Below are positions 21,001 through 33,000 of a stretch of 33,301 nucleotides of DNA, in pieces. This stretch comes from Escherichia coli (GTDB lineage Bacteria > Pseudomonadota > Gammaproteobacteria > Enterobacterales > Enterobacteriaceae). Within the stretch, counting starts at the first letter, position 1; every line of letters starts with the position of its first letter. The DNA is taken from NCBI RefSeq assembly GCF_002854065.1, contig NZ_CP024149.1; one strand, written 5' to 3'. The position numbers were made by a program.

Positions 21001-24000
21001 TTGCTTGTGGCTTTTGTTAAGGTGGATTATCCGACTTGGGGCAAGGGTTTGATGCGCCGATTGGGCTTGATCGTGGCAAGTCTTGCGCTGATTTTACTGC
21101 CTGTGGTGGCGTTCAGCAGTCATTATGCCAGTTTCTTTCGCGTGCATAAGCCGCTGCGTAGCTATGTCAATCCGATCATGCCAATCTACTCGGTGGGTAA
21201 GCTTGCCAGTATTGAGTATAAAAAAGCCAGTGCGCCAAAAGATACCATTTATCACGCCAAAGACGCGGTACAAGCAACCAAGCCTGATATGCGTAAGCCA
21301 CGCCTAGTGGTGTTCGTCGTCGGTGAGACGGCACGCGCCGATCATGTCAGCTTCAATGGCTATGAGCGCGATACTTTCCCACAGCTTGCCAAGATCGATG
21401 GCGTGACCAATTTTAGCAATGTCACATCGTGCGGCACATCGACGGCGTATTCTGTGCCGTGTATGTTCAGCTATCTGGGCGCGGATGAGTATGATGTCGA
21501 TACCGCCAAATACCAAGAAAATGTGCTGGATACGCTGGATCGCTTGGGCGTAAGTATCTTGTGGCGTGATAATAATTCGGACTCAAAAGGCGTGATGGAT
21601 AAGCTGCCAAAAGCGCAATTTGCCGATTATAAATCCGCGACCAACAACGCCATCTGCAACACCAATCCTTATAACGAATGCCGCGATGTCGGTATGCTCG
21701 TTGGCTTAGATGACTTTGTCGCTGCCAATAACGGCAAAGATATGCTGATCATGCTGCACCAAATGGGCAATCACGGGCCTGCGTATTTTAAGCGATATGA
21801 TGAAAAGTTTGCCAAATTCACGCCAGTGTGTGAAGGTAATGAGCTTGCCAAGTGCGAACATCAGTCCTTGATCAATGCTTATGACAATGCCTTGCTTGCC
21901 ACCGATGATTTCATCGCTCAAAGTATCCAGTGGCTGCAGACGCACAGCAATGCCTATGATGTCTCAATGCTGTATGTCAGCGATCATGGCGAAAGTCTGG
22001 GTGAGAACGGTGTCTATCTACATGGTATGCCAAATGCCTTTGCACCAAAAGAACAGCGCAGTGTGCCTGCATTTTTCTGGACGGATAAGCAAACTGGCAT
22101 CACGCCAATGGCAACCGATACCGTCCTGACCCATGACGCGATCACGCCGACATTATTAAAGCTGTTTGATGTCACCGCGGACAAAGTCAAAGACCGCACC
22201 GCATTCATCCGCTGATTTCTCCCTGTATTTTTTCCAAACCCACCGCACACTCCATTCGTATTATGGGCGGTGGGGTGGGGTTTGTTATGCCGTATTTATC
22301 AAATAAACGCCTACTTGCTGAGATGAGTATCGCTCTTGTCATGGCGATCGTTGCCACGCTGACCCTTGAGCACAGTCAGATTGATCTGATGGTCGCTGAT
22401 TGGTTTTATCTGGGTATGGGGCATTGGATGGTTGCCAAGCAAGCTTTTTTGCCAGATTTGCTACTGTATTCTGGACTAAAAAAGCTGCTGATGGCGATGC
22501 TGATCTACTTGCTGGTTGCGACCATTTGCCGTGCTTATCATGAGAAAAAGGGCAATGCTATCACTGCCAAGTGGCTTGTCCCAGTGACAAAATTTCGCGT
22601 GCGTGAGCTTGCGTATCTGGTGCTGACTTTGATCCTAGTGCCGACAGTTGTCGCGTCATTGAAGGCATATACTCATGTGGTCTGCCCTGTGCATTTGACG
22701 ATTTTTGATGGTACGCTGCCGTATTTGCCGATGCTTGATAGTATGCGTAACACCATTCCTGATAAGTGCTTTCCTGCGGCGCATGCCAGTAGCGGATTTG
22801 CGCTGTTTGCCTTTGCGTTTGCGCCAAGTTTGCGCCGCCGTCGTGGTGCGATCATCATCGTGGTGATGGCATTGGGCTGGGCGATGGGCTGCTATAAGAT
22901 GATTATTGGCGATCATTTTTTGAGCCATACGGTGGTGTCGATGATGCTTGCGTGGGCGATGTCGGCAGGGCTTGCGTGGGTGTTTTTTAAGAAGGGTGAA
23001 CAAGCCTTTAAAAGTAAAAACGGTCGTATCGGTTATTACGGAACGGTTTTTTCAGTTGAGTTTCAAAGCGATGATTCATCAACCTGGAAACTACCAATAG
23101 GAACGGCTTTACTTACGCCTATCGGTCAAGAATTGATGAAAATATGCGGTTCCACTCCAGATATTGCGTATTTAAATAAATTCCTCAACAAAATAAATGT
23201 TGAAGGAAGCCAGGTAAAACTATCAATTATTAATATGTAAAGAGGTCGAGTTACCTGTCTGAGTTCCACTAACCATAATTAAAAGCGACCGCAAAAACTG
23301 CCCAGTGAAAACTGTGTTGCCAGTAATCACAAATGCAGCAAGTACTAATAAAGAGCCTGTTAAGCCCGCAAATATGTGGGCTTATTTTTAATTACTCTTC
23401 ATCATCCCGCAGGAACTGACAAAAATCTTCGCTCCCCATCATATCGACAGTGTTTTTAAATTCGAAAAAAGAAATTCCTGTCATAGCACACACGCGCTGG
23501 ATAATCAGTTTTTTCTTTTGCTGTCTGACGGTTGCGGTTTCACCAAACTGGATAACAGCCAGGACTGTTTCATCATATGATTTCAGGACAAAATCACAGG
23601 TTATATTCTGCACTTCACGGATTAAATCTTTTACAGCTTCCTCGCTACCATGAGGACGAACAAATTCAATGAGCCGTATTTTGGGAAAAACGGAATAATC
23701 AGGTATAATATTACGTGAAAGAATGCCTAAAAACTCTGATTCATTATTTGAGAGTAAGGGTACTTTAGTAAAACAATCAACCTCCCCAATGGCTGTAAAA
23801 GCATTGGTTGTCAAAGCTGGATTGTTCTTAATAAAATCAGAGAATACATTTTCAGCTGATGGCAAAACAACAGCAGAATTATGTTGTTCATCTCGTTTTT
23901 TATTACGGTTAAATATCATTTCATATTCCTTTTAAAAGAGCCTGCGGCAGGCACAGGCAAAAACATCGTTTTTGGACAATCTGATTCAAATGTTAACATT

Positions 24001-30000: not shown

Positions 30001-33000
30001 CGGTTTTTCAATGCTGAAATCAATCACACCATATTAATGCATCGTCCACATCCGGAAAGTTATATCAAAGGTGGTACGCTGAAAGCAATTAAACAGAATC
30101 TGAAAGAGGCTGGATTATTATGAAACATTTAAAATATAAAGGATATTTAGGCACGGTTGAACCCGATTTTGAAAATAATGTCCTGTATGGAAAACTGGCG
30201 TTTATTCGGGACCTGGTAACTTATGAGGCTTCTACATTAGCTGAACTGGAACAGGAGTTTAAAACATCTGTTGATCTGTATTTACAGTCTTGTGTGGAGG
30301 ATGGAAAGGAACCTGATACCCCGTTTAAAGGCGTGTTTAACGTCAGGCTTGATCCAGAACTGCATCGTCGGGTAGCAGAAATGGCGATGGAAGAAGATTT
30401 ATCGTTGAATGCCTTTGTTAATAAGGCTCTGGAAAAAGAAGTCAGCAATCATCGCGCAGGGGCTTAATTGCCCTTGTTTTTATGCCCTGTAAGGGCATGG
30501 GAGGCGCTTTGCGCCGGAAGCCCCGCAGCGCAGCGAGGACTTAAAAAGCGTTACGGCTTCAGCCGTAACAATTCCCAGCCCTGCCAGGCCTGTTTTTTCT
30601 TTCACAAATCTTTCAGCTATACGTTTGCCTGATGGTCGAAGACGAAAGAATCTTTCAGCAACGAAATCTGGACATATGCAGCGACGATTTTATAGCCAGG
30701 CACAGTGCCACATATGGTACAATCAATGCAGGATAGACAATCCGATGTCAAATGTTAACATTTGAATCAGATTGTCCAAAAACGATGTTTTTGCCTGTGC
30801 CTGCCGCAGGCTCTGTTGGGGTGACTTATGAAGATGATAGCGTTCAGGCTAAGTGATGATGAGTTAAAATTTGCAGAACATAACGCTATTTTAAGTGGAT
30901 TTACCAGTATCAATGCTTTTGCTAAGCATAACGTGCTTAATATTGAAACCAAGCCTGTTAACATCCCAGTTAATAATGAACCAGCAAAGCTGGTATCAGT
31001 GCGTCTTTACCCTCATGAAATAGAACTTGTTAAACGTAATGCTGCTCTTCACGGCATGAGCATGAGCAGAGAAATTGCTATTCGTGTGCGTCAGTCTTTG
31101 TTAAAGAGTGAAGTCTGTCTTTACCCTGATGAAGTTAAGGAACTTAAAAAACTATCAACTGCTGTAGATCGTGTTGGTCGCAACATTCATTTTATCATAA
31201 AAGGTGAAAGATTCTGTACGGTTAACGATCCAGATTTCAGAAAAGACGTTATTGAAGTGATTGAACTGTGTAAGCAAATTGATTCAAAACTTGAAACGTT
31301 AACCAAGAGTGTTGTTAACAGATTTGGGTGATTTATGGGTGTGTATGTAGAACAGGAATACCGTATTAAACGCGCTAAAGGGACTGGGCGTGATCCGAAA
31401 TCTCCTAAGTTATCGGGAAGACATATACATGCCAGTAAATCGGCTTTTAATCATAAAGTCAGACATGGTGCGGACAAGAAAGCATATACCTGGACACCTA
31501 CAAAAGAAGTCACTTTTAAAATCACTGGCTCAGGTAAAACAGCCGCAGGCATCAAAAATGGTATTGATTACATTACCCGTAATGGTGAACTTGAGGCTTA
31601 CTGTTATGATGGAAAAGGTTCAGAGCAAACAGGGAAAGGAGAAGACTTTAATAGGGAGTTTACTTCAACTTTATCTAAAGGAAATGATTACTCCAGGACA
31701 TATCGTGGAGAAAACATCGATCATGTGAAAAACATGGTCTTTTCACCACCACCAGAAGCTGGAGTAAGCAGGGAAGACGCTCTGAAAGCTACGGTAGAAT
31801 TTCTTAAAGAGACTTATCCAAACCATGCTTTCGTTGCCGTATACCATGATGATAAAGAAGATCATCCTCATGTACATGTTAATATTAAACTTCGTGATGA
31901 AGAAACAGGAAGAAGATTAAGACTTACTAAATCTGAAACCAGGAAGTTCAGAAACGGTTTTCATAGAAAACTGAAAGGTATGGGATATGATGTTACCGCT
32001 ACCTGGAAAAAAGATCCCGAACGTAAACGGGAGATTGAGCGATTACAGGCTGAAAATCCGAAAAGACTCCGGAATGTTTACAAGGTGGTGGATTTTGGGG
32101 AGACTTCATATCAGAATAAGGCAGGGGAAAAACGAACACCTTTCCTCACTTATGAAACTTTAAAAGGTGGAAAACAGGTTACGATTTGGGGTAAAGACCT
32201 GAAAAATCATTTCGAGTCTGAAAAGCTCCAGCCAGGAACGCTTATCAAAGTAAAAAAACTGGCTCCTACGCTTGTACGTAGTCCAATGTTTAATGATGAT
32301 GGAACTGTTGCAGGCTACAGGGAAACGCATCGCAATAACTGGCAGATTGAAAATATTGCCCTTGAGCGGAACAGAGAACGTCAGGTTCATGAGCGTGAAA
32401 CCAGGCAGCCGGAAGAGAGCGACGTTAAAAAGCAGCTATCCAGAAAACATGAGCAAGGTCACAATATCGGGTTTGCTCTTGAACACGGGTTTACAAAGGA
32501 TTCAGAAGAACATAAAAAACTAAGAATACAGCAAGAGAGGAACTGGAAAGGCCTGGGATTTTAATTTGATTTTGGCGCAGGTGAACAAAGCGGCTACTTT
32601 GCTCACCTGCTGATCACAACAACCTACGAGGGAGGTTATCATGACTGAGCATGATGCTATCTGCATTTCTGGACTTCATCAAATTTTTAGTGATGAAGAA
32701 CATTTGAGTGAGCAACAAAAAGACATTATTCTGATGTACGCTTATGGCTATACCCTGAATGAAATTGCTGATTTCAAAGGACTAAAGCCTTCAACTGTCA
32801 GAAAATATCTCGATTCTGTAAGAGCTGAACTGGGAGGTGTCTCGTTGGCAGGGATCAGAACACTGGTACTCATTCGGACTAATGCCCTTCTCGTGTCAAG
32901 TCTTTCCAGGATCAGTGAGAGGGGGAATTTATGAAAAAATATCTGCTTTTTGCTTTGCCGTTCTTCGTTGTTGGTTGTAGTGAAGAAGTAAAAAGTGTGG

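Follow-up and report, generated by a model that had tools for sequence, protein, structure and literature searches.

The IncX4 plasmid and its pair of inverted repeats

The window analyzed here is the whole 33,301-nt stretch of the Escherichia coli contig NZ_CP024149.1 (assembly GCF_002854065.1). It contains two 91-bp repeats in opposite orientations, which we consider here as candidate origins of transfer (oriT). An 8-kb query comprising positions 23400-31400 was found to match many 33-kb plasmids with 100% identity; pLHM10-1-MCR-1, which is among these 100% matches and has the same length as the window (33,301 bp), is typed as a conjugative IncX4 plasmid of the MOBP and MPF_T types, and the MOB-suite typing of the plasmid record likewise gives MOBP. 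The window is a complete IncX4 mcr-1 colistin-resistance plasmid. From mcr-1 and pap2 rightward, it carries a DUF2726 gene, the first repeat (copy A), a gene in the position of bis, a pir-type initiator gene, 22-bp iterons, a series of small plus-strand genes ending with hicAB, the second repeat (copy B), taxA and taxC (Table 1), so that pir and the iterons sit between the two arms of the repeat.

Copy A (23937-24027) is the exact reverse complement of copy B (30724-30814) over all 91 nt. The repeat finder delimits slightly longer arms (23934-24027 and 30724-30817; 94 nt, 99% identity), and the identity ends abruptly on both sides of each arm. Chance cannot account for an exact inverted repeat of 91 nt in 33 kb. 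The original prediction had described the two perfect inverted copies, an 18-bp palindrome in each of them, the heptamer ATCCTGC at 24017-24023 on the plus strand and 30728-30734 on the minus strand, and an outward gene at 13-17 bp from each copy. All these features were found at the positions predicted, the gaps amounting to 17 bp on the side of the open reading frame (ORF) at 23392-23919 and to 13 bp on the taxA side.

Table 1. Positions of the repeats, their structural elements and the surrounding genes. Coordinates are those of the window, except in the last three rows, which refer to small Col plasmids.
Feature	Position	Strand	Evidence or remarks
Repeat copy A, DUF2726/ddp3 side; candidate oriT, transferred strand would be +	23937..24027	+	Exact reverse complement of copy B; same position as the ddp3-side repeat of R6K and other IncX types; + strand reads from outer to inner end
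Repeat copy B, taxA side; candidate oriT, transferred strand would be -	30724..30814	-	Exact reverse complement of copy A
Small hairpin 1 (GCCTGC-G-GCAGGC), outer part of copy A	23940..23952	+	Single-strand DNA fold; pairs kept in the X4-type alignment
Small hairpin 2 (CAAAAAC-ATC-GTTTTTG)	23958..23974	+	Single-strand DNA fold
Hairpin 3 of copy A, 41-nt imperfect palindrome (GACAATC...GATTGTC), flush against the nic box	23975..24015	+	Self-complementary match
Hairpin 3 of copy B	30736-30776	-	
Nic box CTATCCTGCAT, copy A	24015..24025	+	Only in the window's two repeats
Nic box, copy B	30726-30736	-	
mcr-1 and pap2	20590-23240		
DUF2726 gene in the ddp3 position	23392..23919	-	Starts 17 bp outside copy A; record annotation
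Gene in the bis position, transcribed toward copy A	24054-24458	-	
pir-type replication initiator gene, transcribed toward copy A	24471-25343	-	
gamma-ori-like 22-bp iterons	25417..25708	+	Six tandem copies from 25577 (to 25708) and one degenerate copy at 25417, near the pir start
Accessory genes (J-domain protein, five small genes, hicA, hicB), all transcribed toward copy B	26752..30467	+	
taxA (ddp1), relaxosome accessory protein with two ribbon-helix-helix-like repeats	30828..31331	+	ATG 13 bp outside copy B; NCBIfam DDP1 equivalog, 230 bits (cut-off 150); record annotation
taxC (ddp2), relaxase	31335..32564	+	NCBIfam MobP1, 403.8 bits (cut-off 200)
Type IV coupling protein in the taxB position (620-aa ORF)	9995..11857	+	Homologous position annotated taxB in IncX4 plasmids L010 and L011
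oriT-like elements of small plasmid L003	517-527, 580-590	+, -	Nic-proximal half of one element matches the window; hairpin tip of the other resembles the pCOL315-3 type
oriT-like elements of small plasmid L013	544-554, 1229-1239	-, +	X4-type and X1/X3-type
oriT-like elements of small plasmid L014	280-290, 2524-2534	+, -	X4-type and X1/X3-type

Structure of the repeats

From its outer to its inner end, each copy consists of two small hairpins, a 41-nt imperfect palindrome (hairpin 3) and, flush against the latter, an 11-nt box, CTATCCTGCAT, here called the nic box. The first small hairpin is a possible candidate for an accessory-protein site. In the copies carried by the small plasmids described below, the stem of the second is kept while its loop varies (ATC, CCC, or TCA). 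The 18-bp palindrome TCAAATGTTAACATTTGA, located at 23986 (23986-24003) and 30748, forms the tip of hairpin 3. The single-strand fold of the 91-mer has a free energy of -24.2 kcal/mol and a z-score of -8.5. Within the window, the 11-mer CTATCCTGCAT occurs only in the two repeats, its expected number by chance being 0.01.

A perfect inverted repeat bracketing a discrete gene block could also delimit a 6.9-kb module that is mobile or invertible, either a transposon-like unit or an inversion switch carrying the replicon; inverted repeats of 91 bp could in principle recombine homologously and thereby invert the DNA between them. We regard this explanation as highly improbable. Transposon ends were rejected because neither a transposase nor an invertase is annotated within the segment or immediately next to it, and because the bases flanking the two repeat ends differ, so that there is no target-site duplication. 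The inversion switch was rejected because a synthetic junction corresponding to the inverted form was matched end to end in 0 of 800 records, versus 441 of 721 for the native junction. The arrangement is also fixed across the IncX types X1-X6.

Conservation of the repeat pair in the IncX family

The window was compared with nine other IncX plasmids: R6K (IncX2), plasmids of the types IncX1, X3, and X6, an X5-like plasmid, the untyped plasmid RCS29_pII, and three further IncX4-like plasmids. Exactly one pair of long inverted repeats (79-112 bp) was identified in the window and in all nine of the others (types X1-X6), always in the same two positions: one copy abuts taxA/ddp1, and the other lies just beyond pir/bis, beside ddp3 or a DUF2726 gene. 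In every copy the long hairpin is directly followed by CTATCCTGCAT, replaced by the variants CTATCCGGGGT in the X6 plasmid and CTATCCTGCGT in RCS29_pII. This box is identical in the X1, X2 (R6K), X3, X4, and X5-like plasmids, in small Col plasmids, and in a plasmid of Aggregatibacter. The hairpin stems are unrelated between the IncX types and yet paired in each of them (GACAATC/GATTGTC, GGGCAAACGC/GCGTTTGCCC, GGGTGAAACCC.../...GGGTTTCACCC, and GGCGTAG/CTACGCC), and the single-strand folds of the IncX repeats give z-scores ranging from -4 to -9. Among the X4-type copies, compensatory changes on both sides were observed in 6 of the 27 predicted pairs, all six being located in the long hairpin.

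These data are in line with the literature on the family. According to PMC3402527, the two oriTs of IncX plasmids are contained in long inverted repeats, the first close to taxC and the second close to the rep gene and ddp3, an arrangement so far unique to conjugative IncX plasmids. The original prediction had stated that R6K-type plasmids carry two oriTs, and the published work upholds this: it locates oriT-alpha and oriT-beta of R6K in the long inverted repeats and regards the possession of two oriTs as a hallmark of conjugative IncX plasmids. Going by its title, the study by Avila, Nunez and de la Cruz (1996), reference 56 in PMC10123127, reported that both R6K oriTs are functional.

Outside IncX, a single CTATCCTGCA box is present upstream of a taxA-like gene in MobP1 plasmids of Aggregatibacter and Campylobacter, and adjoins a palindrome in the Campylobacter plasmid. 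Since these distant MobP1 plasmids carry the box, and carry it only once, the nic box is ancient and its duplication specific to IncX. The Aggregatibacter plasmid (L016) also contains a perfect 150-bp inverted repeat (7229-7387/9308-9466), which brackets a gene encoding a zincin-like metallopeptidase (possibly ArdC-like); this repeat begins about 100 bp from the single oriT-like box of the plasmid and does not include it.

In the IncX1 plasmid pSZ5R-tetX4 (L006), the two repeats (9031-9141 and 14603-14712) are only 88% identical to each other. The 115-nt stretch on the taxA side is nearly identical to that of R6K, with three mismatches, all downstream of the nic box, and in the 115-nt stretch on the ddp3 side the repeat is identical to that of an IncX3 plasmid. 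Since the repeats of pSZ5R-tetX4 are thus mosaic (R6K-like and IncX3-like), the two copies can be exchanged independently.

According to the single-strand folds, the CCTG in the nic box is paired in X4 with a CAGG located upstream, and in the X1-X3 and X5-like plasmids with TGTAGG, the corresponding pair in X6, where the nic box differs, being CCCCG/CGGGG. This pairing (positions 23954-24023 in the window, and the equivalent positions elsewhere) closes a three-way junction around the hairpins. A covariation between the nic box and the upstream box was considered and rejected: the compensatory change in X6 is contradicted by RCS29_pII, which has an X6-type upstream box with an ordinary nic box.

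Concerted evolution of the two copies and covariation with TaxA

The divergence of the repeats was assessed by comparing the window with the three other IncX4-like plasmids. Within each of these plasmids the two copies are 98.9-100% identical. Between plasmids, the flanks on the ddp3 side are 98-99% identical, whereas the repeat itself is only 83-92% identical. The differences are unevenly distributed inside the repeat, the identity amounting to 95-100% in the outer 38 nt, 62-82% in the long hairpin, and 100% in the last 12 nt, which include most of the nic box. Since the copies are nearly identical within each plasmid while the hairpin diverges between plasmids, the two copies change together. 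The perfect identity seen in the window had been ascribed in the original prediction to concerted evolution or selection; concerted evolution is supported in the IncX4-like plasmids, but perfect identity is not general in IncX, the copies being 93% identical in R6K and 88% identical in one mosaic IncX1 plasmid.

The flank showing by far the greatest divergence is that on the taxA side, the first 300 bp of which are 73-85% identical. All the differences between the TaxA of the window and that of the pCROD2-type plasmids are located in residues 1-60 (30828-31010 in the window), which correspond to the first of the two ribbon-helix-helix-like repeats. Among the IncX4 lineages, this N-terminal repeat diverges along with the middle of hairpin 3 (23983-24008 / 30743-30768). 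The TaxC proteins of the window and of the IncX4 plasmid L011, in contrast, are identical (same protein accession), although their hairpins differ. These patterns suggest that the N-terminus of TaxA may read the variable hairpin, and TaxC the invariant nic box.

Relaxase, nick site and predicted direction of transfer

The relaxase TaxC belongs to the MOBP class, as indicated by the NCBIfam MobP1 family and by the histidine motif HPHVHV, which is shared with the TaxC of R6K. The two TaxC proteins are 35% identical over 354 aa (E 2e-65), and the residues YH(D/E)DK..HPHVHV are conserved. In MOBP systems of the RP4 type, the nic consensus on the transferred strand is YATCCTG|Y, and the sequence TATCCTGC, present in both copies, fits this core. 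As a general rule in this class, nic has the inverted repeat on its 5' side, the 5' end at nic is bound by the relaxase, and transfer proceeds from 5' to 3', away from the inverted repeat. On this basis, nicking is predicted to occur between G24022 and C24023 of the plus strand in copy A, and between 30729 and 30728 of the minus strand in copy B. In copy A, hairpin 3 ends at 24015 and the predicted nick comes after 24022, which places the inverted repeat a few bases 5' of nic. A text search combining R6K with ATCCTG for literature on the nick site yielded nothing relevant.

The two 91-bp repeats are very probably the IncX4 versions of the long inverted repeats containing oriT-alpha and oriT-beta in R6K. 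We are equally confident that each copy is a complete MOBP-type oriT, composed of the two small outer hairpins, the 41-nt hairpin, and the nic box CTATCCTG|CAT. Nicking, mobilization, and the use of both copies in IncX4 are expected from homology.

The process might run as follows. TaxA, the ribbon-helix-helix accessory protein, would bind the repeat, its variable N-terminal repeat probably reading the variable middle of the 41-nt hairpin. TaxC, the MobP1 relaxase, would cut the invariant nic box, remain on the 5' end and be passed on to TaxB, the coupling protein, and to the type IV secretion system. Given their inverted orientation, the two copies would be nicked on opposite strands. Both nic boxes point inward, that of copy A to the right (plus strand) and that of copy B to the left (minus strand); copy A would therefore send the plus strand from 24023 rightward, and copy B the minus strand from 30728 leftward. 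From either origin, the 6.7-kb segment carrying pir, the iterons, and the accessory genes would enter the recipient first, and taxA-taxC and the type IV secretion genes last. This direction, which follows from the MOBP rule, is the one that the original prediction had proposed for both copies.

Small Col plasmids carrying the element

The 91-mer matches 732 plasmid records, about 280 of which are typed as non-conjugative. The non-conjugative carriers inspected are Col(MG828) or Col(BS512) plasmids of 1.5-2.9 kb with RepL or Rep replicons, lacking both pir and a relaxase gene. In them the element is retained in full or reduced to its nic-proximal 37 nt, and one of them (L013) also encodes a TaxA homolog between its two oriT-like elements. 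Since the element is kept by unrelated replicons without any pi-dependent replication, a function in transfer is far more probable than one in replication. Such Col plasmids are also listed for strains that harbor IncX4 mcr-1 plasmids (PMC8703133), and thus co-reside with them.

Three of the four small plasmids inspected (L003, L013, and L014; 2.1-2.9 kb) were each found to contain a pair of oriT-like elements, which differ in IncX type and lie on opposite strands (Table 1). No description of such two-type pairs on small plasmids was found in the literature searched. This arrangement suggests that the two-type Col plasmids are hitch-hikers equipped for more than one IncX helper.

Points against a pair of transfer origins, and alternatives

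Several points weigh against reading the repeats as two working origins. The heptamer ATCCTGC occurs at 10 sites on the two strands of the window, and is therefore uninformative when taken alone. The link between the TaxA N-terminus and the hairpin involves only 3-4 lineages. The identity of the copies cannot show that both are equally used, and no experiment on an IncX4 oriT was found in the literature searched. For R6K, PMC3332091 also assigns the repeats to the alpha and beta replication origins, and the conservation of the IncX repeats could owe something to replication, although a role in replication and a role in transfer are not mutually exclusive. Lastly, the oriTfinder-based annotation of an IncX4 mcr-1 plasmid gave a 14-bp inverted repeat, GCAGGTGAGCAAAG...CTTTGTTCACCTGC, as the oriT-like region (PMC6287198), and this maps to positions 32577-32610 of the window.

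It is possible that only the taxA-side copy is a working oriT, and that the ddp3-side copy is either a replication start in the style of alpha/beta in R6K or a regulatory region bringing the DUF2726/ddp3 gene under shared TaxA control. In the MobP1 plasmids outside IncX, the ancestral state is a single origin upstream of a taxA-like gene; each repeat, ending 13-17 bp before the start of the outward gene, is necessarily the upstream region of that gene, and a weak outward promoter-like site is present inside each copy in the window. The link drawn between the repeats and the alpha/beta origins extends to the ddp genes, which were connected with replication control (PMC3332091). The copies are identical, however, over every element that an origin needs, including the nic box, and the title of the 1996 study mentioned above speaks for two functional oriTs in R6K. 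No promoter-like site was found in the R6K repeats, and the fact that small plasmids with non-pir replicons keep the element indicates that its core function is independent of pi-type replication. No iteron-like 22-mers were detected near the repeats of the window (up to 7 mismatches), but the same scan in R6K (up to 6 mismatches) detected none near its repeats either, and hence has no power in this respect. Altogether, we consider a single working origin to be unlikely.

Two other hairpin regions were observed in the window. The first, at 32577-32610, is a 14-bp inverted repeat, GCAGGTGAACAAAG...CTTTGCTCACCTGC, located between the stop codon of taxC and the next ORF at 32641, with neither a nic box nor a T-run. 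In an Rfam scan of positions 23000-33301, the 91-bp repeats had no match, and the only two matches, both below threshold, were to the SymR and R1162 antisense RNA families at 32574-32648. In the second region, at 12584-12650, which the original prediction had given as an example of where the nick might otherwise map, two neighboring hairpins follow the last gene for type IV secretion. They share the loop CGCCAA, the nic box is absent from both, and their appearance is rather that of operon-end structures or of a pair of protein-binding sites.

The oriT might conceivably be one of these regions, in which case the 91-bp repeats would not be nicked. The published annotation cited above favors the hairpin downstream of taxC, but that placement is a prediction by oriTfinder and not the result of an assay, the region has no MOBP nic box, its weak sub-threshold Rfam matches are to antisense RNA families, and in the searches made it was not among the sequences common to the small Col plasmids. 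The hairpins at 12584-12650 come after the last type IV secretion genes and likewise lack a nic box. An oriT in either place seems to us the least probable of the explanations considered, and two origins of transfer in the 91-bp repeats remain the preferred interpretation.

Genes around and between the repeats

The product of the DUF2726 gene occupying the ddp3 position gives only a weak, sub-threshold match with NCBIfam DDP3 (28 bits; cut-off 140), and no similarity to R6K ddp3 was detected by BLASTP. Among the five small accessory genes, one is predicted to encode a helix-turn-helix protein and four are of unknown function; searches of the small genes of the segment against PHROGs and NCBIfam yielded only the J domain and the helix-turn-helix.

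Each annotated gene located between the repeats faces the nearer repeat, both in the window and in the seven further IncX plasmids with a fully annotated inter-repeat segment. Since the IncX plasmids share their synteny by descent, this orientation has to be counted as one single observation. Leading-region genes whose transcription uses the incoming strand as template have been reported to be oriented in this way (PMC11541004).

One can speculate that the 6.7-kb segment is a two-way leading region, in which, whichever strand arrives first, the genes closest to its 5' end lie on the right strand for transcription from the incoming single-stranded DNA (pir and bis when transfer starts from copy A; hicAB and the block of small genes when it starts from copy B). 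In parallel, the TaxA N-terminus and the middle of the hairpin would define transfer-specificity classes within IncX4, exploited by the tiny Col plasmids having two origins of different IncX types. We put forward this combined proposal tentatively, and consider it rather improbable as it stands.

A direct repeat of about 415 nt (99-100% identity) is present at 26347-26753 and 28427-28843. Each copy reaches the ribosome-binding site and ATG of a plus-strand gene, encoding the J-domain protein (26752) in one case and a hypothetical protein (28830) in the other. The element consists of a GC-rich 300-nt core followed by TTGCAA-17-TATTAT, the spacer being itself a hairpin. Elsewhere, it occurs in 2-6 copies per plasmid (78-93% identity), mostly in plasmids of about 60 kb, and in the IncI2 plasmid inspected an element of this type lies upstream of a run of small genes including hicAB. 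In single-strand promoters of the Frpo/ssi kind, a long hairpin of the transferred strand recreates a -35/-10 promoter ahead of leading-region genes. No Frpo-like long hairpin was found in these repeats, the folds of either strand showing only local hairpins with z-scores of about -3. The element may be a regulatory or single-strand initiation element of the leading region.

Significance and comparison with known systems

The feature is the paired oriT of IncX plasmids, already described for the family; the IncX4 plasmid on which it was found here has been sampled very extensively. The present findings leave intact the general picture drawn for R6K in 1996. In practical terms, the likely origins of IncX4 plasmids are the two 91-bp repeats, and probably not the hairpin downstream of taxC designated by an automated tool. 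With the element occurring on hundreds of tiny Col plasmids, it seems that a hidden population of hitch-hikers is helped by IncX4 plasmids.

The closest known system is the oriT-alpha/oriT-beta pair of R6K. In both plasmids, two inverted copies flank the pir/gamma-ori region, one upstream of taxA-taxC and the other beyond bis; a long hairpin is flush against an identical CTATCCTGCAT, and TaxA and TaxC are homologous. Beyond the 11-nt box, however, no shared nucleotide sequence was found, and R6K is not among the blastn matches listed for the 91-mer. The hairpin stem differs, and the repeat is about 108 bp long and 93% identical in R6K, as against 91 bp and perfect in the window. TaxC is only 35% identical, and the gene beyond the second copy encodes a DUF2726 protein, with no recognizable ddp3. 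The R6K repeat overlaps the start codons of taxA and ddp3, whereas that of the window stops 13-17 bp short of the genes.

With the IncP oriTs (RP4 and R751), the prototype of the MOBP class, the repeats share the nic core ATCCTG|C, preceded at a distance of a few bases on the transferred strand by an inverted repeat, a histidine motif of the HxH type (HPHVHV) in the relaxase, and the location of the relaxase genes on the last-entering side, as in the RP4 polarity. RP4 has a single origin and the accessory proteins TraJ and TraK, whereas the window has two origins on opposite strands and TaxA. The hairpin of the window (41 nt) is also much longer than that of RP4, and ends 7 nt before the predicted nick.

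In the IncI1 plasmid R64, a ribbon-helix-helix accessory protein of the NikA/NikB system binds the inverted repeat beside nic and directs a MOBP relaxase. This division of labor matches that proposed here for TaxA and TaxC, the binding by TaxA being deduced from covariation only; R64 differs in having a single origin.

Lastly, the small plasmids carrying an oriT only (surveyed in PMC10123127) resemble the Col(MG828) and Col(BS512) plasmids of 1.5-2.9 kb described here, which carry the IncX4-type element without any relaxase; the latter differ in that three of the four inspected have two oriT-like elements, of different IncX types and on opposite strands.

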